DNA of 44,406 nt, taken from a virus. Where the stretch lies: the IMG/VR virus record IMGVR_UViG_3300009702_000038, positions 1-44,406 of that record; one strand, given 5' to 3'. The position numbers and the translations under genes were made by a program. The notes beneath the pieces were generated by a model that worked only from the letters and a program-made list of their open reading frames with translations, was not told the origin of the DNA and did no database searches. Of the stretch, positions 13,981-44,406 are shown piece after piece (positions within the stretch are counted from its first letter, which is position 1; every line of letters starts with the position of its first letter).

Positions 13981-14027
13981 CTGACGAGAGGGATACCGGC
14001 CCCTTTCCCTCTTTTTGCAACATTGAC

Positions 14028-14060
14028 CTAAACATTCACATGATTTAGGTTATACGTTAC
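14028..14060 (+). promoter_or_regulatory. Copy E4 of the conserved promoter-like element, pointing antisense into the terminase gene
   Basis: CTAAACATTC-N12-TTATACGTTAC followed by ATG 14061. Same architecture as the copies at 26549, 30513, 31253, 31313 and 31970. Confidence 0.5.
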
Positions 14061-14141
14061 ATGAGGCCGGAAGGACGTTGCCAACCAGGCCTCGGCGGCC
14101 ATAGAGCCCCTCGCTCGGGACAGGCGGGGGGCGTGCCGCTT

Positions 14142-16962: not shown

Positions 16963-17709
16963 CTAGATGAAAGTTTCTCCCTTACGGAGAAAGCCGTGCT
17001 TGACATCTCTCGCATAGTCTCTCGGCTGGTGGGCATCTATCCTCTCGTTCATGCGCTCCTCGAACCGGCCTTGCTCCGTGCCCTTGGCTCGGGGGTCAGT
17101 CTCTTTCCAGGGGATGTACTTTGGGTGATACTCCAGGCCCTTCGCCGCCCACTTCAGGGCGTCAACAAACTGGGAAAACTGGCTGCCCTGAATAAATCGG
17201 GGGGAGTTTTTGAGCTTCTGCGCATAGTTTATCACGTACTGGTCAATGGCGTTCTCGCTGTACATCCCACCCCACTGGTTGATGCGCTTCAAAATCTCCC
17301 GCGCCTTGCCCACTTGCTTCAGCGGAATCTGATTCTGTGCCGGGCCTTCGGGAATGTCTATCATGCCCTGCGCCTGCATCTGTGTGTCCAGCGCATCGCT
17401 CTTGTCCCACTCTGCCTGGGTCTGGGGGGTGCGGGGGCCTGCGTGGGCGTACTGGGCCTGGATGGCGGCCTCCTCGGCGTCCCACTTGGCGTCGTCAATC
17501 TCGTCCTGCCTGGCCTGCGCCTCTTCCTCTTCGCTCTGCTTTTCGACGAGGCCTCTGCCGATAGGGTCCTTCGACACGAGTGGGGAAAGGGTGGACTCGA
17601 TGGCGCCCTCCTGCTTCCACTCGTCCTTACGCTGTGCCCGGTCTACCTGCGACAGCATGTCCCACGAGAGGGCGGGGGCCTGTGCCTGGTCGGGTTGCGG
17701 GTCGGGCAT
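16963..17709 (-). CDS. Hypothetical protein (248 aa), first gene of the late block
   Basis: Long ORF with protein-like composition, at the start of the collinear minus-strand late gene run. Confidence 0.7.
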   Translation of the reverse strand: MPDPQPDQAQAPALSWDMLSQVDRAQRKDEWKQEGAIESTLSPLVSKDPIGRGLVEKQSEEEEAQARQDEIDDAKWDAEEAAIQAQYAHAGPRTPQTQAEWDKSDALDTQMQAQGMIDIPEGPAQNQIPLKQVGKAREILKRINQWGGMYSENAIDQYVINYAQKLKNSPRFIQGSQFSQFVDALKWAAKGLEYHPKYIPWKETDPRAKGTEQGRFEERMNERIDAHQPRDYARDVKHGFLRKGETFI

Positions 17710-17770
17710 CTGTGCCAGAGGGCTTGCGGCTGATTCACCCCATATCTGTTCAAGATTTGTAACTTGCTAC

Positions 17771-17799
17771 AAAAACACCCTATTTTAGGGGGTAGGGTG
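17771..17799 (-). terminator. Intrinsic terminator-like hairpin (minus strand) 62 nt upstream of the late block
   Basis: Read on the minus strand: CACCCTA-N10-TAGGGTG followed by TTTTTG. Confidence 0.5.
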
Positions 17800-18318
17800 C
17801 CAAAATCGTCAGCCGTGGTCCCTCTGTTCAGACGACCCCCTACTTCCTAGGCACTTCAATCCTGCAAGATAACCTAGACGTTGGTCGGAGGTGTATTAGT
17901 ATCGTCTAATGTCCCTCTTAGAGTAGTATCTCTATTCTATTAGGAGTACTTCTATACTAATAAAGATTCTCTAACTTCCCGTAACTACTAGTAAAGTTTA
18001 TCTTACTATTAGGGGACGGAAAAGGGGGCTCTTTGGTGTTGCTTGTGGTGTTGACGCCCTAAGTAACCCTTATGGTAAGTCACTTTTGGTTCTCAGGGGA
18101 GAGAGTGGGTTACTCGCTACCGCTCGTGTGCGATTCTTTACCAGTAGGGGGAACACCTACCCGTGGGGGGTTGTGCGATGGAAGTGTTGTCAAGGATAAT
18201 CGACTATTGAATGTCGTTTTCATAAAAAGTTGAGATATCCCTTGACATTGGGCGGGAAGGTGTGCTAGTCGGTGAGATAATCGTTGACTGGGGTGGGGAT
18301 TTATGCTATTAGACGCAG

Positions 18319-18346
18319 AAAAACCCCTTGTCGTAGTGACAAGAGG
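18319..18346 (-). terminator. Intrinsic terminator-like hairpin (minus strand)
   Basis: Read on the minus strand: CTTGTC-ACTAC-GACAAG, then GGGG, then TTTTT. Confidence 0.55.
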
Positions 18347-18513
18347 CTAAAGAATGGTGATTTGGGGGCGTTACACCCCCCTGAAACTATTAGCTTTTCC
18401 CTGTTGACTATCTCCCCACACTTTGCTAGCGAACCTGGGGAGTGAGAATCGGCTGCCACGAAGGCACGTAGTGACGTGGCCCTGGTGAAGGTCTATCAAG
18501 AGGACAATGGGCC

Positions 18514-18550
18514 GAAACAAAAGCCCCACACTTATTCAAAAGTGCAGGGC
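18514..18550 (-). terminator. Intrinsic terminator ending the early/middle minus-strand block
   Basis: Read on the minus strand: GCCCTGCACTT-TTGAAT-AAGTGTGGGGC (11 bp including two G-U pairs) followed by TTTTGTTTC. Lies about 130 nt after the last early ORF. Confidence 0.65.
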
Positions 18551-18682
18551 CTTCGTGTCGTTACGCCTAGCGCGTGTCGTCCGGTAGTGTCCACCATGCT
18601 ATGACGACTAAGAGCATGATGGCTGTGAAAAGGCTCAATCTAGTCCGCTCCCTCCTGTTCTGACGCTAGCTCGTTCATGACG

Positions 18683-19392: not shown

Positions 19393-19562
19393 GCCGCCAC
19401 CTTCCCGCGATACCCGCGAATCACACCGTACCCCGTCAGCGTCAGAATGATAAGAGACCACCACGTGACGTGGCCCATGAACAGCCCTAGCACGCTTGGG
19501 ATTAGCAGCGTATACGCTAGCGCGTTCAAGATTGCTTCTTTGTTGAATGTTCCTAGTTTCAT
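19389..19562 (-). CDS. Small membrane protein (57 aa), not in the ORF track
   Basis: Manual translation: MKLGTFNKEAILNALAYTLLIPSVLGLFMGHVTWWSLIILTLTGYGVIRGYRGKVAA. Strong SD AAGGGAGG. Two hydrophobic segments. Confidence 0.55.
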   Translation of the reverse strand: MKLGTFNKEAILNALAYTLLIPSVLGLFMGHVTWWSLIILTLTGYGVIRGYRGKVAA

Positions 19563-21190: not shown

Positions 21191-21801
21191 CGTCCGTTCC
21201 CCTCTTTGTTGAATGCCAGTTGTTCACGCCATTGGGCGCGGTCTGCTTCTGTCCTGCAATGGGGCTCCCATATGTACTTTCGCCCCGTCGCCATACTCCA
21301 AGCCTGACACTGAGCCATCTCCCAACGGATACGGACGAACCTAGTGTCTCGTGTCTTGGGAAGCTCGGAAAACTTGCGATTGCTGCTCCCTGAAAACCAG
21401 TCGCGGAACGTTCCGTCATTCAATGGTTGGTCAAGTATCCCGGGATTCTCAACAATGATGCGGGCGAGGTCCGTCAAGAGGTCGGCTACTTCGGCGCGTT
21501 GTTTGGCGACCTTGGCGATGGCCCTGCGCTTGCGGTCAATGGCCTTGCGGCCATCTAGGAGCGTCTTGTCCGCCGTCTTGGCTACGCAACTGCTACCGAC
21601 TCGGAACCGGTTCCCACCCGCTTCCGCGATGACATAGGCGTTTTTGATGGCGGTTCCGCAATGGTCGCATACGCCCCCCGCCTGCTCTGGCGCACCTGGC
21701 GCTGCACGGAAACCAAGATGCTCGAAACCGACGACGCGGAAAGGTGCAACTCCGCAACCAGTAGACTCAAAAGGATGGATTTTTGATTTTTCAGTTTTCA
21801 T
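21187..21801 (-). CDS. Hypothetical protein (204 aa)
   Basis: ORF. Its stop overlaps the ATG of the sigma-factor leader (ATGA). Confidence 0.65.
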   Translation of the reverse strand: MKTEKSKIHPFESTGCGVAPFRVVGFEHLGFRAAPGAPEQAGGVCDHCGTAIKNAYVIAEAGGNRFRVGSSCVAKTADKTLLDGRKAIDRKRRAIAKVAKQRAEVADLLTDLARIIVENPGILDQPLNDGTFRDWFSGSSNRKFSELPKTRDTRFVRIRWEMAQCQAWSMATGRKYIWEPHCRTEADRAQWREQLAFNKEGNGR

Positions 21802-21963
21802 ACGTTCACCGTGGCATACCTATCCCCAGGCGTCAACAGGTATTTAGGCGTCGGTCAAAAAAAGTTTGGACATACGTTATGTGACACTACGTGACCATAC
21901 GTTGCCACATACGTAGCGCCACGCAGAACAGCCTCCCCGATTCGTGAAAAATCTCAGGAGGTC

Positions 21964-21989
21964 CTTGATACGGGAAGCGTTTTCCCATA
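21964..21989. promoter_or_regulatory. Copy M1 of a 26-bp motif containing GGAA-N5-TTCC
   Basis: CTTGATACGGGAAGCGTTTTCCCATA. Near-identical copies lie at 22033 and 38023. Confidence 0.45.
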
Positions 21990-22032
21990 CGGGTTTCACC
22001 GTCAGTGAAATCAGGAAAAAAATGAAAAGGCG

Positions 22033-22058
22033 CTTGATAGTGGAAGCGTTTTCCCACA
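22033..22058. promoter_or_regulatory. Copy M2 of the 26-bp motif
   Basis: CTTGATAGTGGAAGCGTTTTCCCACA, 69 bp from M1, in the 280-bp gap upstream of the 204-aa/sigma genes. Confidence 0.45.
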
Positions 22059-26275: not shown

Positions 26276-26548
26276 TTATTCACCTTCACCTTCCGTAAGG
26301 ATATCGAGAGCGTCGGGGACGTATTGCCCACAGTCGGGGCAGTCAAGCAACTGGCCGGAACCTTGTAGCTCATGCCCCCCCACGAGGACAAGCATCTCGT
26401 CCACACTCTGCGCGAGGTCCTCCGCTGCCCGCTGGACAACGGTTCTGTCTTGCCGGACGGCGGCGCTAAGCAAACGAGCGACGGCAACAGTGATTGCTCG
26501 CTCCAGGCGGCGCCGCGTCGTGTGGTATATTTGCGTCTCAGTTGCCAT
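26276..26548 (-). CDS. Hypothetical protein (90 aa)
   Basis: The ATG at 26548 abuts promoter-like element E5. C-terminal CPDCG motif. Confidence 0.6.
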   Translation of the reverse strand: MATETQIYHTTRRRLERAITVAVARLLSAAVRQDRTVVQRAAEDLAQSVDEMLVLVGGHELQGSGQLLDCPDCGQYVPDALDILTEGEGE

Positions 26549-26583
26549 AACTAACGTATCCCTTCATCAGCCTCAATATTTAG
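26549..26583 (-). promoter_or_regulatory. Copy E5 of the conserved promoter-like element
   Basis: Gene orientation: CTAAATATTG-N12-GGATACGTTAGTT-ATG. It overlaps the 3' end of the upstream CDS. Confidence 0.5.
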
Positions 26584-27084
26584 CTCGCGAATCGTGTAAG
26601 CCCAAAACTCGTTAGCTAGCTGACGAATCTCGTACCGACTCATGTCATAGTTTTCTTCTTCCCAGGCCAGGCGCTTGATGGTGCGGTCGCCCACCCCTGC
26701 CGCAAGGAGCTGCCACACGTAGCGCTTCCTAGGGTCTATCCCCTGCCGTACTGCCTCAGCAGCAACACGCCCTGCGTGGGCATAGATGCGTGCCTTGGCG
26801 GACGCTGAGTAGTTGACTAGGGGATGGTCCGCGTCGAGTACATCATCCACTTCCGCCATGTGCTCCACGCCTAGGGCACGCTTCGCCTCCCACAACGCCA
26901 CGCTCTTGACGTGACCTGCGGCGGCAAGGTGCGGTCCCTCAACCGGCTCGATGTCCACGAAGTCGGGGCAGTACTTGTGCAGGATGGCATCGCGGGCCAT
27001 CTCGACCTGCTTGCGTGTGAGCCACTGCTTGCTCGTGCGGTCCCAGTGGTGGTACTCGGAAGGGCGTGGGGGTCTAGTAGTCAT
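26551..27084 (-). CDS. Hypothetical protein (177 aa)
   Basis: ORF. ATG 27084 is in a TGATG overlap with the DNA polymerase stop. Confidence 0.65.
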   Translation of the reverse strand: MTTRPPRPSEYHHWDRTSKQWLTRKQVEMARDAILHKYCPDFVDIEPVEGPHLAAAGHVKSVALWEAKRALGVEHMAEVDDVLDADHPLVNYSASAKARIYAHAGRVAAEAVRQGIDPRKRYVWQLLAAGVGDRTIKRLAWEEENYDMSRYEIRQLANEFWAYTIRELNIEADEGIR

Positions 27085-29012
27085 CAATGTACCTCGAACC
27101 AGTTTTCCCCGATGGCGGGTTCCGCGAGGATTGGCACCTTGTAGCCTAGCTTGGGGCCTGCCCCTTGCATGCAGTCTTGGAGGACTTTTGCGTAGTAGGG
27201 GGCTCGCTCTTCTAAGCAGGTAACCAGAATCTCGTCATGGACAACAGCGACTAGTCGAGCCTCGCTCCGCTTTGCCCGGGCCGCGAAGTCCACCATCGCC
27301 ACCTTGGCGACATCTGCCGCGTTGCCTTGAATGATAGTATTCACTGCGATTCGCTCGCCGGAGTTTGTGATAGCGCCATTGATGCGCCGTGCGCAGTTTA
27401 TGTCGATTCCATATTTCCCGGCGAGATACTTCGCTTTCGTATGGTACGCTTCTGGGTCCCGGCGTTGCCAGGCTAGGGGCCTCAACTCAGGCACGAACCT
27501 GCGGCGTCCCGTCTTGGTCTGCACGTAGGGGACAGGAGAGCGCTGCTTGACGACGCGGATAACCTTCTCTCGGAAGGCGTTGGCCTCTGGGTATTCAGCG
27601 GCGCTAGTTTTCAAGTGTTCCTTGGCCTCGGCCATCTCCCAACCGAAGGTGCGTGCTGCCTTGCCCGGGCCTCCCCCGTAGATGAGGAACGCGAAGTTGA
27701 AGGTCTTTCCTTGGTCCCGTGTGAGCCCTAATGCGTCGGCGGTTCGCTGGTGGGGGTCAGCTCCATCCAAAAAGGCGTCCAGCAGGTACCCTCCAGCCAG
27801 TTCCGCGAAAAGCCGCAACTCAATCTGTGAGTAGTCCGCTGAGACAAACGCCCACCCCGGGTCGGGAATGTAACAGCGCTTGAGCAACGGAGCATATTCG
27901 CCCCGCGAGAGTTGGTTTTGGATGTTCGGGTTACTGCTACTGAGGCGTCCAGTACGCGTCCCCAACTGGAGTATCTCAGGGTGTAGTTTACGGTCGGGCC
28001 ATTGTCTAATCTCTTCATAGAAACCGTCGAGATATGTTCCTTTCACTTTTGAAGCGGAGCGCAGCTCCAGGATAAGCTCGGCAATCTCACTCTGTGCTTC
28101 TGTGCCGTGCGTGATGTTCCACTTGAGCACATCCTTCCCGGTCTTGAACGCGCCGGTCTTGGTAGTGCCTTGCGGCACGAGAGAGCCCTCAATGAACAGC
28201 TCTTGCAAATCTTTAGCGCTACTCCACGAGAGCTGGTGCCAGATGCCTGACGCGGGGTCCTCTGTAGGCGGAAAGAGATGGTCCCACTTTTGCTGAAACT
28301 GCGCTAGGTTGTCTGCCGCGAGGATGCCCATAGTCTCCTCCAGGCGGTCGATGTCAAGGCGGATACCTCCCAACTCCATGCAGGCTAGCTCAACAGCCAG
28401 AGGCGTCTCGATGTCTAACAGGGCAGCCTTCTGCTTCTCTGTAAGGTGCTTCTCGTACAGTAGCTCCCCCACCTGAAGCGTGTTCAATGCGTCCTGGCAC
28501 ACGTAGTCTTTAACTTGCGCGGCGGTCTTGTCGATGAGGCTACCTTCCCACTCCGGGCTTTCCCGGTCCAGCAGCTCACGGGCCAGCTTCTTTAGGCCAA
28601 TGCCGGTCGTGCGGGAAAAGGCGAGCCACGCAGCAAGCATGCTGTCCCTCCACAAGAAGCTCTCGACGCCGAATCCTTCCCGTTCCAGGAGGCCCGCGTC
28701 AAACTTGACGTTGTGCGCCCAAGTAACCATCCCCTTGCCCCGCATCATGTCGAGGGCTTGCTCGGCCCACGTCCACTTAGCGTTGGGACCACGGTGACGC
28801 AGAGGGAGGTAGTAGCAGTTTTCGTTCGGGAAGGCTAGGCTGATTCCTTGGATGGCGGTGTAGCCCAGGTTCAGGAAGGGATTGCTGCGTGCTTGGGAGT
28901 AGCGCCGGGCGGGACCCACGGCCTCCGTGTCCAGACCACATACCTCATGCTTCTCGATATCCCGTTGGAGCATGGCGAAGCGGGCGTCTGTAGTTACGAG
29001 GCGCTGTTTCAT
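27084..29012 (-). CDS. Family A DNA polymerase with 3'-5' exonuclease domain (642 aa)
   Basis: Exo I GLDTEA, Exo II HNVKFD, motif A VSADYSQIELRL, motif B RDQGKTFNFAFLIYGGG, motif C VAVVHDEILV. ATG 29012 is in an ATGA overlap. Confidence 0.9.
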   Translation of the reverse strand: MKQRLVTTDARFAMLQRDIEKHEVCGLDTEAVGPARRYSQARSNPFLNLGYTAIQGISLAFPNENCYYLPLRHRGPNAKWTWAEQALDMMRGKGMVTWAHNVKFDAGLLEREGFGVESFLWRDSMLAAWLAFSRTTGIGLKKLARELLDRESPEWEGSLIDKTAAQVKDYVCQDALNTLQVGELLYEKHLTEKQKAALLDIETPLAVELACMELGGIRLDIDRLEETMGILAADNLAQFQQKWDHLFPPTEDPASGIWHQLSWSSAKDLQELFIEGSLVPQGTTKTGAFKTGKDVLKWNITHGTEAQSEIAELILELRSASKVKGTYLDGFYEEIRQWPDRKLHPEILQLGTRTGRLSSSNPNIQNQLSRGEYAPLLKRCYIPDPGWAFVSADYSQIELRLFAELAGGYLLDAFLDGADPHQRTADALGLTRDQGKTFNFAFLIYGGGPGKAARTFGWEMAEAKEHLKTSAAEYPEANAFREKVIRVVKQRSPVPYVQTKTGRRRFVPELRPLAWQRRDPEAYHTKAKYLAGKYGIDINCARRINGAITNSGERIAVNTIIQGNAADVAKVAMVDFAARAKRSEARLVAVVHDEILVTCLEERAPYYAKVLQDCMQGAGPKLGYKVPILAEPAIGENWFEVH

Positions 29013-29536
29013 CGAAGATGCCCCCCCGCCCTGCACAGGACCAAGCACTTGTGTGAACAAAACTTGAGAGATTCAATGTGGCCGACAACATAAGGCTCAT
29101 CCTTCATAATCTCTTTGTCACACCAAGCGCAGTAGCCTTGAATCTCGAAGCGCTTGAAGTTGTAGTACTTGTCCTTGATGCGCGTGGCGGCTTCGTCGTC
29201 CCCGGCGATGCGGTCTGGAGGGCACTGTAGCGCAAGGTCTGCTGTCTTTTCAAAGTGGGGGCAGTGCGGGCAAGTCTCAGCATCATTCAGATGCTCGCAG
29301 TGAACATAGGGAACAGAAGCGTCTCTCTCTTGGCCCGTAAGCTCCTCGATGACACGGGTCAAATACCAGGCGGCCTTCTGTAAGTCCTGGAGCTTGTTCC
29401 CCTTATACTCGCAGCGGCACACGTACTTGATGACGTTGGCTAGGCGGAAGTCGCCATTGGCGTACGTCTCAATCACGTCGATGACTTCAATGCCGTTCTG
29501 ATTGTAGTGCGCGGGGTGGTTTACCTTGTCAGTCAT
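29009..29536 (-). CDS. DUF3310-like protein with a Cys-rich (FCS-type zinc-finger-like) C-terminal extension (175 aa)
   Basis: N-terminus VNHPAHYN...IEVIDVIE...ANVIKYVCR...DLQKAAWYL matches the DUF3310 pattern as I remember it. C-terminus CAWCDKEI...KFCSHKC. Confidence 0.65.
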   Translation of the reverse strand: MTDKVNHPAHYNQNGIEVIDVIETYANGDFRLANVIKYVCRCEYKGNKLQDLQKAAWYLTRVIEELTGQERDASVPYVHCEHLNDAETCPHCPHFEKTADLALQCPPDRIAGDDEAATRIKDKYYNFKRFEIQGYCAWCDKEIMKDEPYVVGHIESLKFCSHKCLVLCRAGGHLR

Positions 29537-30044: not shown

Positions 30045-30512
30045 TTACCAGTCGTCCTCTTCATTCGTTTCTGCCGCTGGTTGCGGGGTTGGGGTTGGTT
30101 TCTTCGGCGCAGCCTTCTTAGCTGGCTTTCGTTTCTTTGTGGAGGCCTTCGTGCTCTTCCCGCGTCCGTGCGCTGCTTCAGCATCGTCGTCCTCTTCGCC
30201 CACGAGGTTGAACAGGAGACAGAGGCCGTAGCGGCGGTGGTATGTAATGGCAGAGCCTAGACCTTGCGGGTCCTGCTTGCCAAGCACGAAAGGAATGTCT
30301 ACAAACTCGTAGTCCGCTCCCCCGTTAGCCGTAACCGCAGTACGGAAAAGAAGATGACCGCTATTGCCGACAATGGCCCCTTGCGTGATACTAGCATCCT
30401 CCGGGAGGCCTGCCTTCACGACACGCAACACTTCGTCGAGCGGCGCGTACTTGTTCCCAAAGTGCGGATTCTTCGCCGTCAACTTCGGGTTCTCAATGTT
30501 GAACTTGCTCAT
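30045..30512 (-). CDS. ERF-family single-strand annealing protein (155 aa)
   Basis: NPHFGNKYAPLDEVLRVV... and QGLGSAITYHRRYGLCLLFNL match the ERF pattern. Lys/Pro-rich linker and acidic tip EEDDW. The ATG abuts element E1. Confidence 0.7.
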   Translation of the reverse strand: MSKFNIENPKLTAKNPHFGNKYAPLDEVLRVVKAGLPEDASITQGAIVGNSGHLLFRTAVTANGGADYEFVDIPFVLGKQDPQGLGSAITYHRRYGLCLLFNLVGEEDDDAEAAHGRGKSTKASTKKRKPAKKAAPKKPTPTPQPAAETNEEDDW

Positions 30513-30547
30513 ATCTAACGTATAACCTTTCAGCCCCGATTGTTTAG
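30513..30547 (-). promoter_or_regulatory. Copy E1 of the conserved promoter-like element
   Basis: Gene orientation: CTAAACAATC-GGGGCTGAAAGG-TTATACGTTAGAT-ATG(erf). Confidence 0.55.
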
Positions 30548-31252
30548 CTCGGCGGCAAACTCCTCGTTCACGCAGTCCAGCGTCGTGAGCCACGCAGGGT
30601 CTTGCTCGATGATGAAGGGGCGCAAGTCCCAGAACAACCTCCACGGCTCTCGTGGGTACTTGAATATACACTCAGCGGCGATAACGCCGAAGTCCAACTC
30701 TAGCACGGCGAGCTGCGTGCGGACCTGGTTGATGTAGTAGGGGGGAACCTCACCCCTCGCCCATCCTACGCTGATACTCTTCTTGATTTCTAGAATCGTC
30801 TTTTCGTTCTTCCCTAAACGTGACAGCCCGTGCAGCGTTGCCTCTACCTGCCTAGGGTCTTGGCAGTACTCAACCTCTGGCTGCGTGATGGGGTCGAAGC
30901 CTATGAAGGCGTCCACCGTGACACTGACGTTAGGCCAGCGGTCGTTCACGAACATGCTGTTGTCCGGCTCGGGGCACGCCAGCATCTCCCCGACCTTCTC
31001 GATGATGCACTTCTCATCGTGGGCGCCGTGGTTTATGCTGATTCGAGGGCACTGGTCAAACTCTTTGTCGATGCCCTCCAGCTTCTCCGCAAGGATAGAC
31101 TCTCGCGTGTTGTCTTCGAAGTACCAAGCGTACTTCTTAGGGAGCGCAGAGGGGCCAATCCAACCCGTGATGGCAGACGCCGTGATGTAGTTTCGGCGCA
31201 GCTCTAACCACTCTTCGCGGTCATCAGCTGTGCCCACCCGTTTTATTCCCAT
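30530..31252 (-). CDS. YqaJ/lambda-Exo-type PD-(D/E)XK recombination exonuclease (240 aa)
   Basis: EWLELRRNYITASAI (YqaJ N-terminal pattern), ILEIKKS (ExK), YYINQVRTQL. Paired with the ERF gene. Confidence 0.75.
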   Translation of the reverse strand: MGIKRVGTADDREEWLELRRNYITASAITGWIGPSALPKKYAWYFEDNTRESILAEKLEGIDKEFDQCPRISINHGAHDEKCIIEKVGEMLACPEPDNSMFVNDRWPNVSVTVDAFIGFDPITQPEVEYCQDPRQVEATLHGLSRLGKNEKTILEIKKSISVGWARGEVPPYYINQVRTQLAVLELDFGVIAAECIFKYPREPWRLFWDLRPFIIEQDPAWLTTLDCVNEEFAAELNNRG

Positions 31253-31287
31253 ACCTAACGTATCCCAAGAAACTCCCGATTGTTTAG
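31253..31287 (-). promoter_or_regulatory. Copy E2 of the conserved promoter-like element
   Basis: Gene orientation: CTAAACAATC-GGGAGTTTCTTG-GGATACGTTAGGT-ATG(exonuclease). Confidence 0.55.
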
Positions 31288-31312
31288 CCTCTCATTTTAT
31301 TTTCCTCAAAAA

Positions 31313-31347
31313 CTAAATAACTACATGTAAGTATGTTATACGTTAGT
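31313..31347 (+). promoter_or_regulatory. Copy E6 of the promoter-like element, divergent from E2; candidate promoter of the plus-strand block
   Basis: CTAAATAACT-N13-TTATACGTTAGT followed by ATA rather than ATG. About 158 nt upstream of the first plus-strand CDS. Confidence 0.5.
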
Positions 31348-31410
31348 ATACGTAGCTTGCTTGGGTAAGTATCTACCTTCCTTAGAGTAACGCATTCTTG
31401 GGGTAAGTAT

Positions 31411-31428
31411 ACTCTTTCGCGAAAGAGT
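31411..31428. promoter_or_regulatory. Perfect 18-bp palindrome (operator- or hairpin-like) in the leader of the plus-strand block
   Basis: ACTCTTTCGCGAAAGAGT is its own reverse complement. Confidence 0.45.
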
Positions 31429-31505
31429 GTCGCCTGAGAGGGCGCTCGGGAAGAACAGAAAAGGTAGTAGAGCCATGAGGACTAGAAGAACGGGAAGGGA
31501 CAGAT

Positions 31506-31955
31506 ATGCACGAAGGTAAAGCGGTTTTCAGTGATGAGTGCAAAGAGGAAATCAGGGAGCGCTGGCCGGACATCTGCCCGGAGTGTGGGTTCATCGCATA
31601 CATCGGAATGAATCAAGTCTCCTGCGTCAATGTGGAGTGCCGGAACGGTGTGCAGAAAGAGCGTGATGACTACGACGCATTGGTTGAAGCGGACAAACAG
31701 CGAAGTACACCCCTGTCCCTCCTAGAAACTCGCGATACCCTCCCCCCTGCTCTCCCCTCGCTCGGCTGGCGCCACACCGTTGCCCACGACAAGCCTATGA
31801 AACACACGGTAGGAGAGTGGTGGTATCAGCTAGAGCCAGGAGAGGGACAGAATGTGAACATTGGCGATTTATATTTATCTTGTGTCAACGGAGCGGATTA
31901 TGTGGTAGCCAGCGTAGACCGCTGTACCGATGTTATTTCCCTACGGCTCAACTAA
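31506..31955 (+). CDS. Hypothetical protein with an N-terminal zinc ribbon (149 aa)
   Basis: CPECG...CVNVEC. SD GGAAGGG upstream. Confidence 0.65.
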   Translation: MHEGKAVFSDECKEEIRERWPDICPECGFIAYIGMNQVSCVNVECRNGVQKERDDYDALVEADKQRSTPLSLLETRDTLPPALPSLGWRHTVAHDKPMKHTVGEWWYQLEPGEGQNVNIGDLYLSCVNGADYVVASVDRCTDVISLRLN

Positions 31956-31969
31956 AATGCAGGTAGCGA

Positions 31970-32004
31970 CTAAACAATCACCCCCTTCCCGTTATACGTT
32001 AGAT
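31970..32004 (+). promoter_or_regulatory. Copy E3 of the conserved promoter-like element
   Basis: CTAAACAATC-ACCCCCTTCCCG-TTATACGTTAGAT-ATG(32005). Confidence 0.55.
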
Positions 32005-32223
32005 ATGGCCCTGAACGACAACCGCGATGAAGTGTGTGAGCTGACCCAAGACTGGGCGTTCGTGGACTCATGGAGCGTGGGAGAGGGTCAAAGCGGCACG
32101 AGGAGAGTATCCCCCTGGGAGTCTACAAGACGTACCGCGATGGCGCTGCCAAGGCTAACGCCTGGCTCAAGGCTACCTCTGGCTCCCTGCGTTGGGAAGC
32201 GGAGAGAATCTACAAACCACTGA
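32005..32223 (+). CDS. Hypothetical small protein (72 aa). Only the first half looks protein-like.
   Basis: The ATG abuts element E3. The N-terminal part MALNDNRDEVCELTQDWAFVDSW is plausible. The C-terminal part is Arg/Ser/Pro-rich and looks like an off-frame read. Confidence 0.4.
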   Translation: MALNDNRDEVCELTQDWAFVDSWSVGEGQSGTRRVSPWESTRRTAMALPRLTPGSRLPLAPCVGKRRESTNH

Positions 32224-32249
32224 CAGACGACCAGGAGGGTGAAGCATGA
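32070..32249 (+). CDS. Alternative-frame small ORF (59 aa), not in the ORF track
   Basis: ...IPLGVYKTYRDGAAKANAWLKATSGSLRWEAERIYKPLTDDQEGEA. Its stop is in an ATGA overlap with the next gene (32246). Confidence 0.4.
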   Translation: MERGRGSKRHEESIPLGVYKTYRDGAAKANAWLKATSGSLRWEAERIYKPLTDDQEGEA

Positions 32250-32497
32250 GTGACCGCATCATATGTAACGATTTTGCCACAACAGAACCAGCAGCTCGTT
32301 GCTTCCGTCTAGTAGGAAGCTTCTTAGAAATCGTAGTCCGCCCGGAGCATCCTGAGTCTGAGGCGTGCCTTGTCTTGGAAGCAAGAAATCCCAACAATAG
32401 GGCAAGCCTGCCTATGATTATTTCTTTGTATGCTACGGAAGCCCGTGCTCTAGCGGGCGCTCTTGTGGCCTTGGCCGACGAGTGGAGCAATCAGTGA
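32246..32497 (+). CDS. Hypothetical protein (83 aa)
   Basis: ORF with a coupled start. Confidence 0.6.
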   Translation: MSDRIICNDFATTEPAARCFRLVGSFLEIVVRPEHPESEACLVLEARNPNNRASLPMIISLYATEARALAGALVALADEWSNQ

Positions 32498-32796
32498 ATG
32501 AGCGCCAAGTCAAACAAGCGGCCACTGCCGACACGCTTTGTTCTGTCACTGGCAAGCCTTGCCGTTGCCGGACTGGGAGTGGGTGCGGCGTTGTCGGTAC
32601 AAGGGTGGACGATTCTGCAACAGAGGCTCTACGATGGGCTCGAACGGCCCAACTCCGCCTCCTCGCGGCGGGGGACGCACTAGACCTCGCGGCAGACGCT
32701 CTCATTTTCGAGCGCCCTTACCCTGCCCCTGCGTTTCGAGACTTCCGCCGTCGCATCGACGCCCTTGTGAAAGAGCTAGAAGAGCTGACAAAATGA
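32494..32796 (+). CDS. Hypothetical protein (100 aa)
   Basis: GTG 32494 in a GTGA overlap (the track start is 32482). Its stop is in an ATGA overlap with the next gene, which supports this frame over the 32498..32683 ORF. Confidence 0.5.
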   Translation: MNERQVKQAATADTLCSVTGKPCRCRTGSGCGVVGTRVDDSATEALRWARTAQLRLLAAGDALDLAADALIFERPYPAPAFRDFRRRIDALVKELEELTK

Positions 32797-33026
32797 CTGT
32801 AATCAAAAACACCATAGGCCATGCCCGCAATCGGTCCCTTGTGCTAAAGGACTGCGCAGGAGACACACTAAGCGTGGAGTACAATGCAAGGCTATTCCGT
32901 GGCGTTGATATTGTGTGTGAGCAGGAGGGCAGTACGGGCGGGGTTGCTATTGTTGCCCTAGCGCCCGAAGATATTCGAGTCCTCGTCGAGGGCCTTGAAG
33001 TAATCTTGTCGGAAATCGAGGGCTAA
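32793..33026 (+). CDS. Hypothetical protein (77 aa)
   Basis: ATG 32793 (MTVIKNTIGH...) within the track ORF 32538..33026. Confidence 0.55.
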   Translation: MTVIKNTIGHARNRSLVLKDCAGDTLSVEYNARLFRGVDIVCEQEGSTGGVAIVALAPEDIRVLVEGLEVILSEIEG

Positions 33027-33420: not shown

Positions 33421-33824
33421 GAGTTGCTTGCCCAAAGTGTGGGGAGGAGCGGGACGTGCTCCGTAAAAACCGCTGGCGTGCGAGCAAAACACCGTGCCGG
33501 GCGTGCCACATCGCGGGGCGTAACTACAAGACACACGGTCATGCAGGCAACGGTAAAATAGCACGCACACGAGAGTACGGAACATGGACGAATATGCGCT
33601 ACCGCTGCAACACCCCTACGGCGCAGAGGTATGCCTTGTACGGCGGGCGGGGCATCAAAGTGTGTGAGCGGTGGGGAATGTTTGAAAACTTCCTATCAGA
33701 CATGGGAGAAAAACCCATTGGAATGAGTATTGACCGCATCGATCCTGATGGAGACTACTGCCCCGAAAACTGCCGGTGGGTCACTGTTGCTGATAACAAC
33801 CGAAACAGAAGGTGTTGCAAGTGA
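33417..33824 (+). CDS. HNH-family homing-type endonuclease (135 aa)
   Basis: [12 protein letters not shown]...[44 protein letters not shown] is the common phage HNH-family pattern. N-terminal CPKCG...CRAC. Confidence 0.7.
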
Positions 33825-34654
33825 ACGTCATCACGACGCGGGACACAATCAACGAGGCCGTTGACGTATTCCACCTAGACCGGGAAGGCTACCCCGACCT
33901 GGTGCCCCTTGGTATCCCCCCGCTCGACAATGAGTTGGGAGGCCTTGGTCCTGGGGCTCTAGGCGTGCTGGCCTCAGCTACAGGTGTTGGTAAGAGCAGC
34001 ACCGTACTTGCCGCCATGCTCGCCTCGCACATCAAGGTGGGCTACATCTCAGCAGAGGATGGACCGGACGTAGTTGGTACGCGCCTTCTCTCCGCCCTCA
34101 CAGGCATCAACTCGATGCGGATACGCCGTAAGGACCTGGACGAAGAAGAGTTAGCCGCAATCGCCAAAGCAGCAAAAGCAAGCAAGCTAGACCACATGTT
34201 CTTTTCCTACCCTCTAGGTGGGCGGTGTGCGCTTGTTGAAGCAGCTATCAGGGAGATGGGGGAGCGTGGGTGCAGGCTCGTATGGTGTGACTATCTCCAA
34301 TGCATACATGTTCACGGTCGGGAGCGCAGACAGGAAATCAATGAAGTGATGTCTCGGATACAAGAAGCGGGGCAGAACGCCGGAGTCGCTGTCATGCTCA
34401 TCTCACAGTTTCGTCGCTTGGGCGACGGTGAGAAGGTGCCTCAAATCTACCACCTGAAGGAATCAGGTGATATCGAGAACAAGGCGCGCATCATCGTGCT
34501 CGCCCATAAGGTAGCGGAATCAAAGGACAATCGGATACGCTACCGCCTCGCCAAGTCCACTTATGGCGGCGAGTATATTTGCTATGACATGGTGCGTGAC
34601 TCGTCGGGCACCCTCAAGCACGCACGTCTCTTCGACGTTGCAGAGGACTTCTAA
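33812..34654 (+). CDS. DnaB-like (RecA-fold) replicative helicase/ATPase, C-terminal domain only (280 aa)
   Basis: Walker [10 protein letters not shown], Walker B LVWCDYLQ. DnaB-like stretches ...ISQFRR... and KESGDIEN. Alternative start GTG 33821. Confidence 0.7.
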
Positions 34655-35064
34655 TGGCAAAAAAGAAAAGCCTGGGCGGGAAAGGCTCACGAACAAAGGG
34701 CCACAACTTCGAGCGGTACGTCGCTCGTATCCTGCGCCTATCCTTCCCGGACGCCCGGCGAGGGAAACAGTACACCGGAGGCCGCGAGGCAGACGTAGAG
34801 GGTACGCCCTTCCGCATCGAGTGCAAGCGGCTGCGTGACGTGCGTCTAGGGGATGTGCTGCGCGCTATCGGGCAAGCAGAGAGCAACGCCGAGACTTGGG
34901 ATGACGACCGCCCTGTTGTAGCCATACACCGCGCTGATAGGGGGAAGGCTTTTGTCACCATGAAGTTGAGCACCGCCGCGCACATCATCGAGAAGTACTT
35001 CTGGCGGACGCCGGAGGACGTGATTGAGTTTCCAACAAAGGGTAAGAACAATGACCCTTCGTAA
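34654..35064 (+). CDS. PD-(D/E)XK nuclease, Holliday-junction-resolvase-like (136 aa)
   Basis: GHNFERYVARIL...EADVEG..FRIECKR (E...D...ExK arrangement). TAATG coupling. Confidence 0.55.
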   Translation: MAKKKSLGGKGSRTKGHNFERYVARILRLSFPDARRGKQYTGGREADVEGTPFRIECKRLRDVRLGDVLRAIGQAESNAETWDDDRPVVAIHRADRGKAFVTMKLSTAAHIIEKYFWRTPEDVIEFPTKGKNNDPS

Positions 35065-37794: not shown

Positions 37795-38027
37795 CGCCTG
37801 CTGAAAGCATGTTCAACCTGTTCGTGGTAACTGCCTTCCTGGGGTCGCTGGTTGACCATTGGTTTGTAGGGCACCGCCGCGTCATCATCCCGCTCCGCAC
37901 CTTCCTGCTCGGCTGCTTCATCTACACTGAGAGCTACCTCGCCGTGACCTCGGAACCGGCCATGTGGCTGTACGTGAGCCTGAACGTGTGGGGCCTGATT
38001 AGCATTTACGCTGGAACAAAGCGCTGA
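37791..38027 (+). CDS. Small membrane protein (72-78 aa)
   Basis: GTG 37791 in a GTGA overlap, or ATG 37809. MFNLFVVTAFLGSLVDHWF... Hydrophobic segments. Confidence 0.55.
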   Translation: MTPAESMFNLFVVTAFLGSLVDHWFVGHRRVIIPLRTFLLGCFIYTESYLAVTSEPAMWLYVSLNVWGLISIYAGTKR

Positions 38028-38048
38028 TAGGTGGAAGCGTTTTCCCAT
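38023..38048. promoter_or_regulatory. Copy M3 of the 26-bp GGAA-N5-TTCC motif
   Basis: CTGATAGGTGGAAGCGTTTTCCCATA, directly upstream of the SD and ATG of 38060. Confidence 0.45.
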
Positions 38049-41470: not shown

Positions 41471-43156
41471 TTAGTCAAACTCGATGACCGCTGAGAGGTT
41501 GAAAATAACCGATCCTGTGAAAGCAACGGACTTGTAGCAAACAAGGAGAATGTCTCCCGCCGCAACAGAATCAGCAAGCCCCGTTTGACTGAGCTTGTAG
41601 GTTGCCCATGCCGTTGCGCCCGTTAGTGTCTGCTTGCTTCCAAGGAGTACTCCGGTCGGGTTAGCGATGGCGCTTCCTTCCGTGGTGGTGAACTTATAGA
41701 GGGCAACATCACCATCAATCGTTCCTGCGGAATGTCCGTACTGTAGGTAGATGTCTGAGATTTTCCCCGCCTTCGGCACGAGGTATCCGCCCCACCCATT
41801 CCCGTTTGTGCTAAACGCGGGGTCCGCTCCACTACCCAACGTGTCCGCCATGTTGGATACGCTGAACAAGGATTGCGCATCCGAAGATACCCACGTCCCT
41901 GCGTTGCCTGTCCATCGACCCGCGTCATGAAACACCGCAACCTGCTTACCAAGACGGATGTCTTGGCCCGCGTCGTCAGTGAACATAGGCACGCAAGGCG
42001 CGTCATCACGGACCCAAAAATCCCCATGTGCTGCCAGGGTTGCAGCAGCAGCAGCTTTCTCTTTGAGGCGTTGCGTAGCCGTGGCACTTGCGTTTGTGAT
42101 TATGCCCGCTGCCTCTGTAACACTTGAGGAATCTTTCAGAATCTTGCCAGTCACCCCACTAAAAAGAGCAACACGATTATCTACAGAGCTAGCCGGACCG
42201 GTCACATCCCCAGAGGAGCTTGGTAGCTTGCTTATTAGAACCTTCTTTTTGCCGTACCCCGCTGCGCTGTCCTCAATGACAAGAACGTCATTATTTGCCG
42301 GAGAATCTTTAGCGACGAGTACGGAAAGCTCGTTACTGCCATCTGTGTGAACCGCCGTAGCGTCTGGGCTGCTTGGCAGGTTAGTTGCCTTGACCTTTTT
42401 CTTTACGTACCCCGCCGCGCTATCCTCGATGAGAAATAGGTCACTATCAACAACATTGCTTTTCTCCGTGAGGACCGACACTTCGTTGGCAACATTATCA
42501 TGAATAGCATCGGCGTCATTCCCTGTTGGGAGTTTGCTTATTAGAACCTTCTTCTTAGCGTATCCTGCTGCGCTGTCCTCAATGACAAGAACGTCGGCGC
42601 TCGCGGGGCTATCTTTAGCAGTGAGCGGGGTAAGCTCGTTACTGCCATCTGTGTGAACAGCGGTCGGGTCCGGGGCACTAACACCCGCAACCTGTACTTT
42701 CCCGTTCCCCTTGTCAAAAACATTGAAAGTGTCTTTGTCGAAGTCAACCCATCCTACGTCCCCGCGTACCTCTGCGTCACCCTCAGACACCTTGAGAGAG
42801 CCTTCGTACTTGTCGTTGTACGGCTGCATGCCTTCGGGGTACGTCGCCGTTGACGTGAGGTAAAAAGAGAAAGTCGTGGTTGCTGCATCCTCAGTCACCG
42901 TGAAAAGGGTCGGGTCCTTATCCCACCCTGCGGCGCGCGATAGGGTAAAGCGATTCACGCCCCCGCCAATGTCTGTAACGGTTGCTGTGTAGCCAACCTG
43001 CGCCCCACCGTTCCCGGTGTCGTAGACATACTCATCCCCCGCGCTCTGGTTCGCCTTGATGATGAGGGAGGCGTAGCCACTAGGGATGTCAAAAGAGATG
43101 CTATCGCCGGGGGCGACAACGCTGTTTGCGGTTGGATTGATATTCGTGATAGTCAT
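41471..43156 (-). CDS. Tail fibre / receptor-binding protein with three internal repeats (561 aa)
   Basis: Follows the internal-virion genes, as T7 gp17 does. Threefold module D..VIEDSAAGY.KKKV....LP. Confidence 0.7.
   Translation of the reverse strand: MTITNINPTANSVVAPGDSISFDIPSGYASLIIKANQSAGDEYVYDTGNGGAQVGYTATVTDIGGGVNRFTLSRAAGWDKDPTLFTVTEDAATTTFSFYLTSTATYPEGMQPYNDKYEGSLKVSEGDAEVRGDVGWVDFDKDTFNVFDKGNGKVQVAGVSAPDPTAVHTDGSNELTPLTAKDSPASADVLVIEDSAAGYAKKKVLISKLPTGNDADAIHDNVANEVSVLTEKSNVVDSDLFLIEDSAAGYVKKKVKATNLPSSPDATAVHTDGSNELSVLVAKDSPANNDVLVIEDSAAGYGKKKVLISKLPSSSGDVTGPASSVDNRVALFSGVTGKILKDSSSVTEAAGIITNASATATQRLKEKAAAAATLAAHGDFWVRDDAPCVPMFTDDAGQDIRLGKQVAVFHDAGRWTGNAGTWVSSDAQSLFSVSNMADTLGSGADPAFSTNGNGWGGYLVPKAGKISDIYLQYGHSAGTIDGDVALYKFTTTEGSAIANPTGVLLGSKQTLTGATAWATYKLSQTGLADSVAAGDILLVCYKSVAFTGSVIFNLSAVIEFD
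42229..42668. repeat. Intragenic direct repeats in the tail-fibre gene (about 130 bp units about 310 bp apart, with a diverged middle copy)
   Basis: cttattagaaccttctt..gc.gta.cc.gctgcgctgtcctcaatgacaagaacgtc occurs at about 42229 and about 42536. Diverged copy near 42400. Confidence 0.75.
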
Positions 43157-44406
43157 TAGTAACTCTGAAGCCGTTGCGTGAAGGTGAAGGCGTTATCGCC
43201 ATCTTGGGGGTGTTCTTGGTGGAAATGACCGTTGGGGCTTCCTCCCACGGCCTGAGCTTGCTGTTCGTTTTGCGCGTAGTTGCTCTGTAGCTGCATGATA
43301 ACCTCGCCGCTGCTAATCGGGTCACCACCGCCTAGAAACTTGGTAACACCCTTGTAGGTTGCGCGGGGGGTAGTGATAGGGTCCATCTTGTCGAGGAGCT
43401 GAGACAGGAGGACGGAAAGCTCAGCGTACATCGAGGGTCGCGTGACGCGCACAGAATCAATCATGTCCTGCGTGACCTCGCCGGTCGTCGCTGCGTAGGC
43501 CACGTCAATAGGGTCAACCATCGCGGCGAACGTCTCTGCAAAGCGCTGTGCCTTCTCTCTGTTCGGCGGCCTGTTCTTTCCGTAGAGGGTGCGGTCAACA
43601 CGGCCTAGCTTGTTCGCTAGGAAATACAGCGCTTGGGTGGACTGCACGCCCGCCATGTTATGAACCTCGATGCTCTGCGATTCTTGTGAGAGGAAGGGCT
43701 GTAGCTCTTGCGCCAGGTGCTCAGGGTTGCCCACGAGCATCGGAATCTTTTCCTGCATCTGCATGAACATGTGCTGCTTCTCCTCCATCGGAGTCTCTTT
43801 CAAGATGCGGAGAGAGCGGTTGACGTACAGGGGAATCTTGCCGGACCGGATAAGCATATCTCCGAAGTCCACAAACTGCTTGAAGCGATGGGCAATCTCG
43901 TCAGCACGCCCCTCCATGCGGGCTTCAAGGGCGCCTGCTGTCTCAACGTCTCCGGCCTTCACCTTCTCGAAGCGGGCTTTGTGATTGATAGCCGCACTCT
44001 TCCGTGCTTTGTTGAGCTTCACTGCATCAACGTAGGCCACCTTGCCTGTCACGAGAGCATCCTCTACGCGGTCGAGCGTGTTAGTGATGCCCCGGAGCTG
44101 GTTGAAGTCTAGGAGGCCGGAGGCGTGCAGATGGTCGAGACCGCCGCGCACTTCACCTATGGCGTGGTCGAGAGCCGTCAAGTCTGTCCCATCGGGAATC
44201 TTGGAAAGGTCGTCGGGAATGTCGAGCCTGCGCAGCTCAGAGAAGCCATCGGAAAGACGGTCGATGCCTTTGTTCAAGTTACGCGCCTGCTCCAGGGCCT
44301 TCCCGGTGCCCCAGATAGTCGTATCCTCGGTAATCGTGCGGAGTGCTTCGTCGAGCCCCTTAGTTGCGCGGTTGCCAACCTTCCCCTTGAGGGCCAAGTC
44401 GAGCCG
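43156..44406 (-). CDS. C-terminal part of the junction-spanning internal-virion/ejection-type protein (see 1..1461)
   Basis: The ORF stays open to the right window edge. The track start at 44397 is an internal TTG. The stop is in a TAATG overlap with the tail-fibre start. Confidence 0.7.
   Translation of the reverse strand, partial: RLDLALKGKVGNRATKGLDEALRTITEDTTIWGTGKALEQARNLNKGIDRLSDGFSELRRLDIPDDLSKIPDGTDLTALDHAIGEVRGGLDHLHASGLLDFNQLRGITNTLDRVEDALVTGKVAYVDAVKLNKARKSAAINHKARFEKVKAGDVETAGALEARMEGRADEIAHRFKQFVDFGDMLIRSGKIPLYVNRSLRILKETPMEEKQHMFMQMQEKIPMLVGNPEHLAQELQPFLSQESQSIEVHNMAGVQSTQALYFLANKLGRVDRTLYGKNRPPNREKAQRFAETFAAMVDPIDVAYAATTGEVTQDMIDSVRVTRPSMYAELSVLLSQLLDKMDPITTPRATYKGVTKFLGGGDPISSGEVIMQLQSNYAQNEQQAQAVGGSPNGHFHQEHPQDGDNAFTFTQRLQSY
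44284..44406. repeat. Terminal direct repeat (right copy), identical to 1..123
   Basis: Direct comparison of both window ends. Confidence 0.95.

Follow-up and report, generated by a model that had tools for sequence, protein, structure and literature searches.

Candidate sigma-70-type promoters with lineage-specific boxes and leaderless starts in a group of uncultured phages

The DNA analysed here is a virus record from IMG/VR (IMGVR_UViG_3300009702_000038; 44,406 nucleotides, hereafter the window), and our subject is an element of about 35 bp that it carries in six copies, E1 to E6, which an earlier reading of the sequence (the original prediction) had taken for a promoter. The window ends in an exact 123-bp terminal repeat (1-123 and 44284-44406) and is therefore a complete circular assembly, namely, a closed phage genome of 44,283 bp with about 57% G+C. 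Its genes diverge at 31.25-31.5 kb, from where a minus-strand arm runs through replication genes and then structural genes, and a plus-strand arm reaches about 38.3 kb. On the minus strand near this point lie exo (30530-31252), encoding a YqaJ-like recombination exonuclease of 240 aa, recognized by its Pfam YqaJ domain and its homologues, and erf (30045-30512), encoding an ERF-family single-strand annealing protein of 155 aa (PF04404, E = 3.5e-18, from residue 6). On the plus strand lie ORF149 (31506-31955) and a gene for a conserved small protein beginning MALNDNRDEVCELTQDW (32005-32249), here called the E3 gene. Further along the minus-strand arm, the family-A DNA polymerase gene (PolA, 27084-29060) is followed by a gene for a 178-aa protein and by a gene for a 90-aa protein with a C-terminal CPDCG motif (26276-26548), the E5 gene, and the large terminase (TerL, 14142-15635) and portal (12061-13980) genes are separated by a short gap. 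E1, E2, E3 and E5 precede erf, exo, the E3 gene and the 90-aa gene, respectively; E6 precedes the leader of ORF149, and E4 lies in the gap between TerL and portal, antisense to both.

The repetition itself is not in doubt. The pattern CTAAAYA-N17-ATACGTTA has five exact matches (14028-14059 and 31970-32001 on the plus strand; 26552-26583, 30516-30547 and 31256-31287 on the minus strand), when 0.03 are expected from dinucleotide shuffles, and E6 is a sixth copy. In E1 (30513-30547, minus), the -35-like box CTAAAC (30547-30542) is followed by a G at -14 (30526), the hexamer TATACG (30524-30519) and a discriminator, TTAGAT, with the transcription start (+1) predicted at A30512; this copy overlaps the final codons and the stop of exo. 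E2 (31253-31287, minus) has CTAAAC (31287-31282), TG at -15/-14, GATACG (31264-31259) and TTAGGT, with +1 predicted at A31252. E3 (31970-32004, plus) has CTAAAC (31970-31975), TATACG (31993-31998) and TTAGAT, and its predicted +1, A32005, opens an ATG, as does that of E5 (A26548; 26549-26583, minus), which has CTAAAT (26583-26578), GATACG (26560-26555) and TTAGTT and sits in the 3' end of the 178-aa gene. E4 (14028-14060, plus) has CTAAAC (14028-14033) and TATACG (14051-14056), then TTAC, with +1 predicted within 14061-14063. E6 (31313-31347, plus) reads CTAAAT (31313-31318), a spacer of 18 nt, TG-T-TATACG (hexamer 31337-31342) and TTAGT, with +1 predicted at A31348, the first base of an ATA. 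The original prediction, which described E6 as an N13 copy followed by ATA and a 158-nt leader, was right about what follows but not about the inner dimensions: the spacer is 1 nt longer than in the other copies and the discriminator, at 5 nt, is one base shorter, such that the distance from the -35 box to A31348 is still 35 nt. E2 and E6 stand back to back, as had been noticed, with 25 bp (31288-31312) between their boxes. Conservation of the -35 box extends over 9-10 bases (CTAAACAAT). Scans of IMG/VR with a loose version of the motif returned single chance matches only, and with a strict 19-base version zero matches, the window itself being also unrecovered. A possible weak seventh copy, CTAGCA-N18-TATACG at 19483-19523 (plus), lies in a gap between two minus-strand genes and is antisense like E4; it has neither G-14 nor the CGTTAG tail.

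In E1, E2, E3 and E5 the box directly adjoins the start codon (A at 30512, 31252, 32005 and 26548), which is ATG in all four cases. The Pfam domains begin near the N-terminus, at residue 6 for ERF and at residue 14 for YqaJ; the alignment of fourteen exo homologues begins at M1, and homologues of the E3 protein and of the 90-aa protein (the latter from L118, L123 and L136) align from residue 1. Judged by these alignments, the four ATGs are real N-termini. A Shine-Dalgarno core at normal spacing was found before none of exo, the E3 gene and the 90-aa gene, and erf has only a 4-nt AGGT, 12 nt upstream of its ATG. The original prediction had contrasted these genes with many others in the genome that carry such sites, and here only the first half stands firmly, as use elsewhere is moderate: cores of at least 4 nt occur at about 24 of 60 crude gene starts in the window. 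Transcription from the ATG, giving leaderless mRNAs for the four genes, is thus a likely reading of the arrangement. Leaderless mRNAs require a 5'-terminal AUG (PMC3616915), and the exclusive use of ATG fits this reading. The E3 reading frame is broken near 32066 (32060-32072) by a 1-nt deletion relative to the related contigs L119 and L125 (GTGGACT-CATGG versus GTGGGGTTCATGG), so that the gene is in two pieces, the 32005 frame and then the 32070 frame; an assembly error, a pseudogene or a programmed shift might each account for the split.

Comparison with relatives carries most of the argument on function. Protein-based searches yielded about 20 related metagenomic contigs (L118-L137), with identities to the window of 49-72% for exo and 51-75% for PolA, and from 18 of them, representing about 14 lineages, we collected about 62 promoter instances. 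Each contig has a box of its own, in 2-5 copies, and these stand upstream of corresponding genes in all of them: exo, the annealing-protein gene (erf or another), the E3 gene, the gene next but one after PolA (the E5 junction; L118, L119, L123, L134, L135 and L136) and the divergent ORF149 operon, as well as the TerL/portal gap in L137. All share one architecture, namely, a -35 box, a spacer of 16-18 nt, G-14 (with T-15 in many), A-11, and an A preceded by a pyrimidine 6-7 nt past the hexamer. That A opens an ATG in 36/62 instances, and never a GTG or a TTG; at exo, the box adjoins the ATG in 15/15 lineages. Elsewhere, ATA and a short leader with a Shine-Dalgarno site come after the same box, as in erf of L126, where ...TATCTAT is followed by ATACGGAAGGTAACCAACGATG, and for erf and the E3 gene the two forms, ATG or ATA plus Shine-Dalgarno site plus ATG, vary between phages. 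This interchange, together with the copies that lack a start codon, argues for a fixed transcription start rather than a translation signal, as originally proposed; the relatives keep promoters at the same six positions, mostly with TTGAC, and the E4 equivalent of L137 would drive tRNA genes.

The window's exact motif recurs in L130 only, whose erf promoter equals E1 in 35/35 bases and which has three further copies of the form CTAAA(C/G)-N-TTA(C/T)(T/A)CGTTA. Elsewhere the motif is lost while gene order is kept, an outcome that the original prediction had counted against itself; since another box of the same architecture replaces it, the promoter reading is refined and not refuted. In L118, L126-L129 and L133-L136 the -35 box is (C)TTGAC(A/T/G), with a 17-nt spacer ending in TG, A-11 and T-7, as in L134 (TTGACA-N15-TGAGAACCT-GTAGAT, then ATG), and by these features they are standard sigma-70 extended -10 promoters. 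In the clade nearer the window the -35 box changes from phage to phage, being CTAGAC in L119 and L137 (one copy TTGACT), CTAGAG in L125, CTAAAG in L122, L123 and L124, TGCATA in L121 and CTAAAC/T in the window itself, and a G at -7 is common to all promoters of this clade. Aligned across E3-promoter orthologues, CTAAAC of the window corresponds to CTTGAC in L119, CTAGAG in L125 and CTAAAG in L124.

Statements on transcription and translation made here are read from sequence, and on that footing E1-E6 are very probably promoters. Counted from CTAAAC/T, the spacer has 17 nt in E1-E5 against 18 nt in E6; counted from TAAACA as the -35 hexamer, it has 16-17 nt. Both counts agree with the 16-18 nt between the two boxes of sigma-70 promoters. 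Because the E3-promoter alignment places CTAAAC under CTTGAC, the hexamer is best read as TAAACA (-34 to -29) with a 16-nt spacer; it agrees with TTGACA at 4/6 positions, the TTG triad being lost, and TATACG (-12 to -7) likewise agrees with its consensus at 4/6 positions. A-11, G-14 and G at -7 occur in 6/6 copies and T-12 in 4/6, and an A is present at the 7th nucleotide after the hexamer (the 6th in E6). The earlier statement that neither hexamer matches the consensus was thus too strong. A scan for canonical sigma-70 promoters over 13-33 kb was not enriched (13 versus 8.5 expected), because it demands T at -7. Promoters without -7T are the majority in Alphaproteobacteria, where they are CarD-dependent (PMC7703639, PMC8407463), and Actinobacteria and Betaproteobacteria are reported to have promoters that lack the TTG triad (PMC8407463). 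We treat these parallels as leads and not as assignments. The window has no nucleotide relative among cultured phages, and its PolA and TerL reach only about 26% identity to those of isolates, so that no host can be inferred; two scans of genome contigs, with exo and TerL alignments, gave no match.

Several other promoter classes were tried and rejected. A sigma-28/FliA promoter (TAAA-N15-GCCGATAA) would share the TAAA, but the -10 region reads G(G/T)(G/T)ATACG and the CCG/CGA core is absent, and for an ECF/EcfG promoter (GGAAC-N16-17-CGTT) the separation of AAC from CGTT is too wide, at 21 nt in every copy. SigB-like, SigE/K-like and SPO1 late (CGTTAGA) readings fail on spacing or core bases. 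CTAAAC as the -10 element of a start further upstream has no matching -35 box and an A at its last position. For a T7-like single-subunit RNA polymerase, neither PF00940 nor another RNA polymerase match was found in any large open reading frame (ORF).

The two copies without a start codon are E4 and E6. The original prediction had counted E4 among the copies that head a gene, but its box-to-ATG distance is only 4 nt, and there is little to recommend the 66-aa ORF at 14061 as a gene, since it is not credible where it overlaps TerL in antisense; E4 is for this reason not a leaderless gene, and the claim holds for E1, E2, E3 and E5. Instead, E4 is followed by a candidate non-coding transcript (14061-14150, plus) with two hairpins and then a U-rich run (minimum free energy -45.9, z -1.9). 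This region shares CGGCGGYCATAGAG with the leader of a tRNA operon in L137, where the equivalent of E4, CTAGAC-N16-GGTACTTGTAATAT followed by G, stands upstream of that leader and of genes for tRNA-His, tRNA-Phe and a Tyr-like tRNA (the last not called by ARAGORN); they occupy the TerL/portal gap (3585-3830, minus), on the strand opposite to the structural genes. By this comparison the window has lost the tRNAs of the gap and kept E4, the leader motif CGGCGGYCATAGAG, and the hairpin and U-run. E6, in turn, heads a structured leader of 158 nt (31348-31505), after which comes ORF149. The leader has a direct repeat, CTTGGG(G)TAAGTAT, at 31360-31372 and 31397-31410, and a perfect palindrome, ACTCTTTCGCGAAAGAGT, at 31411-31428, and the leader of relatives has palindromes of the type TACTCTAGAGTA; these may form a regulatory site for the ORF149 operon. 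Divergent promoters with leaders containing Shine-Dalgarno sites occupy the E6 position in L126, L128, L129, L131, L133, L134, L136, L119 and L125. An Rfam scan of the window gave no match, and a homologue search with ORF149 returned only itself.

Within one phage, both boxes are near-identical among copies while the spacers are unrelated, which makes gene conversion unlikely as the cause of the likeness; between phages, the boxes differ. The sharpest case is L119 against L125, which have 95-100% DNA identity over the E3 gene, the ORF149 homologue and its leader, and only 25-57% identity in three promoters, namely, the ~45-bp E3 promoter and the divergent-plus-exo pair (846-890 and 1405-1500 of L119), with divergence setting in at the base that adjoins the start codon or +1. 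Two histories would account for this: replacement of the promoters in a sequence that the two had recently in common, or elimination of recombinants with foreign promoters. On either origin the promoter must match something else that differs between L119 and L125. This suggests a lineage-specific, trans-acting reader. ORF149 and the E3 protein are excluded as that specificity factor, being identical in L119 and L125 despite the different boxes, and the C-terminal sequences of a 104-aa protein, g104 (32482-32796), show no correlation with box type. Searches of PDB sequences with ORF149 and with a 248-aa and a 197-aa protein of the window gave nothing significant; one match to sigmaE region 2 had E = 0.41, with the alignment partly on a His tag.

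Elsewhere in the window, canonical promoters do occur. TTGAC-N15-17-TGnTA has only four matches genome-wide (0.59 expected by shuffling), in tandem on the plus strand between 18051 and 18432: 18051-18081, 18242-18271, 18284-18312 and 18404-18432, with the hexamers TAAGTC, TAGTCG, TATTAG and TAGCGA, which also lack -7T. They lie in a stretch of about 900 bp (17750-18680) with no ORF above 53 aa and no Rfam match, are oriented against the neighbouring minus-strand genes, and have an AT-rich repeat patch upstream (17880-18010) and several hairpins downstream. This stretch is a possible immediate-early, origin or entry region.

The explanation that we consider best, with a probability of roughly 0.6, is that E1-E6 are sigma-70-type promoters with leaderless starts that are also read by an additional, lineage-specific factor. 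Under this explanation, a bacterial multisubunit RNA polymerase with a sigma-70-family factor would recognize (C)TAAAC(A) as the lineage's version of (C)TTGAC(A), followed by a spacer of 16-17 nt that ends in G-14 (one half of an extended -10 element) and by TATACG/GATACG with A-11 and a G at -7; initiation would take place at the A 6-7 nt past the hexamer. At erf, exo, the E3 gene and the 90-aa gene, the initiating A would be that of the ATG, leaving no 5' untranslated region and no Shine-Dalgarno site, and hence leaderless translation, whereas E6 would start the 158-nt leader of ORF149 and E4 a short non-coding RNA at the place of the tRNA operon of L137. The bases around the polymerase contacts (the -35 variant, -10/-9 and the discriminator TTAGAT), which are constant in any one phage but change from one phage to another, would also be read by a second, lineage-specific trans-acting factor, most likely a phage-encoded regulator whose site overlaps the promoter and which acts alongside the host holoenzyme. 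It is tempting to go further and propose a private promoter code for each lineage, in which the -35 variant and a box from -13 to -1 are read, with host RNA polymerase, by a fast co-evolving phage-encoded specificity factor that is as yet unrecognizable; candidates are a sigma of great divergence, a sigma-appropriation system and a bipartite regulator. We hold this extension as tentative; it would mean that promoter cassettes are exchanged as wholes while the DNA around them stays identical, and that early genes switch freely between leaderless and short-leader forms.

Some of the evidence weighs against our preferred explanation. TATACG without T-7 and TAAACA without TTG would make weak promoters for a standard primary sigma, and in L128 and L133 the -10 hexamer is ambiguous, with no A-11 if +1 is the ATG. 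Four canonical TTGAC promoters are present in the same genome but not at E1-E6; therefore, the deviation of E1-E6 is not simply the general look of this phage's promoters. The lineage-specific pattern comes mainly from one close pair of contigs, L119 and L125. Finally, among about 55 ORFs scanned with Pfam, and about 20 with PHROGs, we found no sigma-70 region 2 or 4, anti-sigma, MotA/AsiA-like, repressor or RNA polymerase domain, although very divergent sigmas could be missed by such a scan; the phage-encoded sigma factor of the original prediction was thus not found. No helix-turn-helix or repressor domain and no integrase was found either.

Two rivals share with our explanation a host polymerase acting at E1-E6. 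In one, the primary sigma holoenzyme of the host, perhaps with a CarD-like general factor, would read these promoters unaided, and the boxes would differ because hosts differ or because of drift. The geometry and the contacts (G-14, T-12, A-11, Y-1/A+1) do suit a primary sigma; promoters normally lack the TTG triad in Actinobacteria and Betaproteobacteria, and lacking -7T is just as normal in Alphaproteobacteria (PMC8407463, PMC7703639); no phage transcription factor turned up in the ORFs scanned; and E2 and E6, heading both early arms, should fire without phage proteins. From drift, however, one would expect neither identical boxes with unconserved spacers nor promoter-only islands within 95-100% identical DNA, L119 and L125 probably have the same host or close hosts, and the four canonical promoters of the window indicate that the host polymerase presumably prefers TTGAC, all of which leaves this rival unlikely in our judgement. 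In the other, a phage-specified positive factor, either a divergent sigma or an activator or appropriation system like MotA/AsiA of T4, would redirect host RNA polymerase to CTAAAC-type promoters, and the four TTGAC promoters at 18.05-18.43 kb would be a host-read immediate-early class. This would account for the co-variation of the -35 and -10 boxes by lineage, for a -35 box whose 9-10 conserved bases exceed a site of sigma region 4, for poor consensus matches at E1-E6 when canonical promoters exist in the same genome, and for the promoter islands of L119 and L125. Yet every ORF scanned lacks sigma-70 region 2 or 4, MotA, AsiA and RNA polymerase domains, ORF149 and the E3 protein are excluded by their identity in L119 and L125, no ORF that is credible lies downstream of the TTGAC cluster in the same orientation, and in most relatives the -35 box is simply TTGAC; we find this rival rather doubtful.

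The remaining readings dispense with host-type promoters at E1-E6, and we give little credence to any of them. That the copies are only operators, like the asymmetric 13-bp stoperators of Cluster A mycobacteriophages, is improbable: asymmetric, multi-copy, lineage-specific boxes of 13-15 bp at gene junctions have this precedent (PMC6550527, PMC9283540), but every copy is also paired, at a constant 16-18 nt, with a second box that in relatives is canonical TTGAC, and carries a purine at a fixed +1 distance, copies are confined to operon or gene heads and point in gene direction, no alternative promoter or ribosome-binding site is available to the exo genes, and neither a repressor nor an integrase was found in the ORFs scanned. 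A phage-encoded non-canonical RNA polymerase, following T7-like or N4-like logic, could explain a start site that does not vary and a core (-14 to +1) that is specific to the phage, and there are several large unannotated ORFs (798, 1205, 561 and 413 aa) that might encode it; these sit in the structural module and have no RNA polymerase match in Pfam or PHROGs, and the TTGAC -35 box, 17-nt spacer and TGn of relatives are the signature of sigma-70 holoenzyme, so that we consider such a polymerase very improbable. Least credible of all is an RNA-level translation signal, transcribed from upstream, that substitutes for the Shine-Dalgarno site. The box does adjoin the ATG where no such site exists, and E1 and E5, lying inside upstream coding sequence, would be present in read-through RNA; but no start codon follows the box in E4, E6 or the tRNA copy of L137, the same box precedes ordinary Shine-Dalgarno leaders in relatives, and translation makes no use of a -35 box at a set distance.

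Leaderless transcripts are familiar from lambda cI, when transcribed from PRM, and from the middle and late genes of Thermus phage phiYS40. In the middle promoters of T4, the MotA box replaces the -35 element and sigma is appropriated by AsiA; the window resembles them in keeping the -10 contacts and replacing the -35 hexamer with a phage-specific box, but no MotA or AsiA homologue was found, and the box stands at -35, orthologous to TTGAC, where T4 has a separate element at -30. The T7 group likewise has phage-own, multi-copy promoter consensuses with a fixed start and specificity positions that differ between relatives; here, unlike in that group, no phage RNA polymerase gene was found, and the two-box sigma-70 geometry would imply the multisubunit enzyme of the host. 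The Caulobacter promoter consensus is TTGACGS/GCTANAWC. With alphaproteobacterial CarD-dependent promoters (PMC7703639, PMC8407463), the window shares a retained A-11 and a -7 that is not T, relatives show CTTGAC at -35, and the four canonical promoters of the window, like those of L128 and L136, have GCTA before the hexamer, but the window's -35 box lacks TTG. Among bacteria, leaderless genes with a -10 element directly upstream of the ORF are known in Deinococcus-Thermus (PMC12340547, PMC4007540) and mycobacteria (PMC4633059). The window agrees with them in a -10 hexamer 6-7 nt before the ATG, the lack of a Shine-Dalgarno site and an AUG that would be obligatory at the 5' end; it differs in that a whole set of early replication and recombination genes would use this arrangement, and in its strongly conserved -35 box and discriminator, its lineage-private boxes and its G at -7. 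As to Cluster A stoperators (PMC6550527, PMC9283540), they too are asymmetric, about 13 bp, numerous, lineage-specific and overlapping with promoter elements, but each window copy is a complete promoter at a gene head, and neither repressor nor integrase was identified.

If the start sites are confirmed, the early programme of this phage group would consist largely of leaderless mRNAs, which would constrain what its host must be capable of translating. The most unusual result is the presence of islands of promoter-only divergence in near-identical DNA. Such islands imply selection for compatibility between promoter and reader, as in pairs of T7-type RNA polymerase and promoter or of repressor and operator, here acting on host-type two-box promoters with no recognizable reader gene. 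The orthologous positions also provide a natural series of variants (TTGAC, TAGAC, TAAAC; -7T versus -7G) useful for studying the evolution of -35 and -10 recognition, and the boxes are a simple aid to the annotation of these uncultured phages, for transcription units as well as for true start codons.

Other features of the window were recorded along the way. The portal gene and the gene for the 248-aa protein, both late and without Shine-Dalgarno sites, have at their heads (13977-13992 and 17707-17722, minus) CCCTCT-N6-7 ending in CAG directly before the ATG, a pattern with 5 occurrences when about 1 is expected, and in L137 the portal gene and one other gene are preceded by CAGGTAWAGTAG, directly before ATG; these heads may represent a class of late promoters whose starts are leaderless. 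The window has a second repeat family, (C)TTGATAnnGGAAGCGTTTTCCCA, which contains a GGGAA/TTCCC palindrome and occurs at 21946-21987, 22015-22056, 38016-38047 and 34926-34953, the copy at 22031-22048 scoring as a minus-strand terminator after the gene for the 197-aa protein. Within the 110 intergenic bp of 21800-21910 there are three repeats of CATACGTT and one of CATACGTA, all without a -35 box; because the segment gaccATACGTTGccaca of this region is conserved in L123, whose promoter box differs, these repeats are probably unrelated to E1-E6.

As for the remaining genes, a DnaB-like helicase is encoded at 33812-34654 (plus) and an SU10-type adaptor at 9303-10004 (minus). The 104-aa protein encoded at 32482-32796 (plus) has a Cys4 knuckle and a helical part and belongs to a family of the form MNEKEYKE...CSVSGxPCxC...YPxPEVRDxRRK, present in every relative at only 30-41% identity and unannotated in Pfam; its gene overlaps the ORFs 32246-32497 and 32538-33026, which are longer but unconserved. 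Lastly, three tandem repeats of 153 bp (51 codons), 71-82% identical, lie at 42218-42674 within an ORF of 561 aa (41471-43156), which probably encodes a structural protein with repeat domains.

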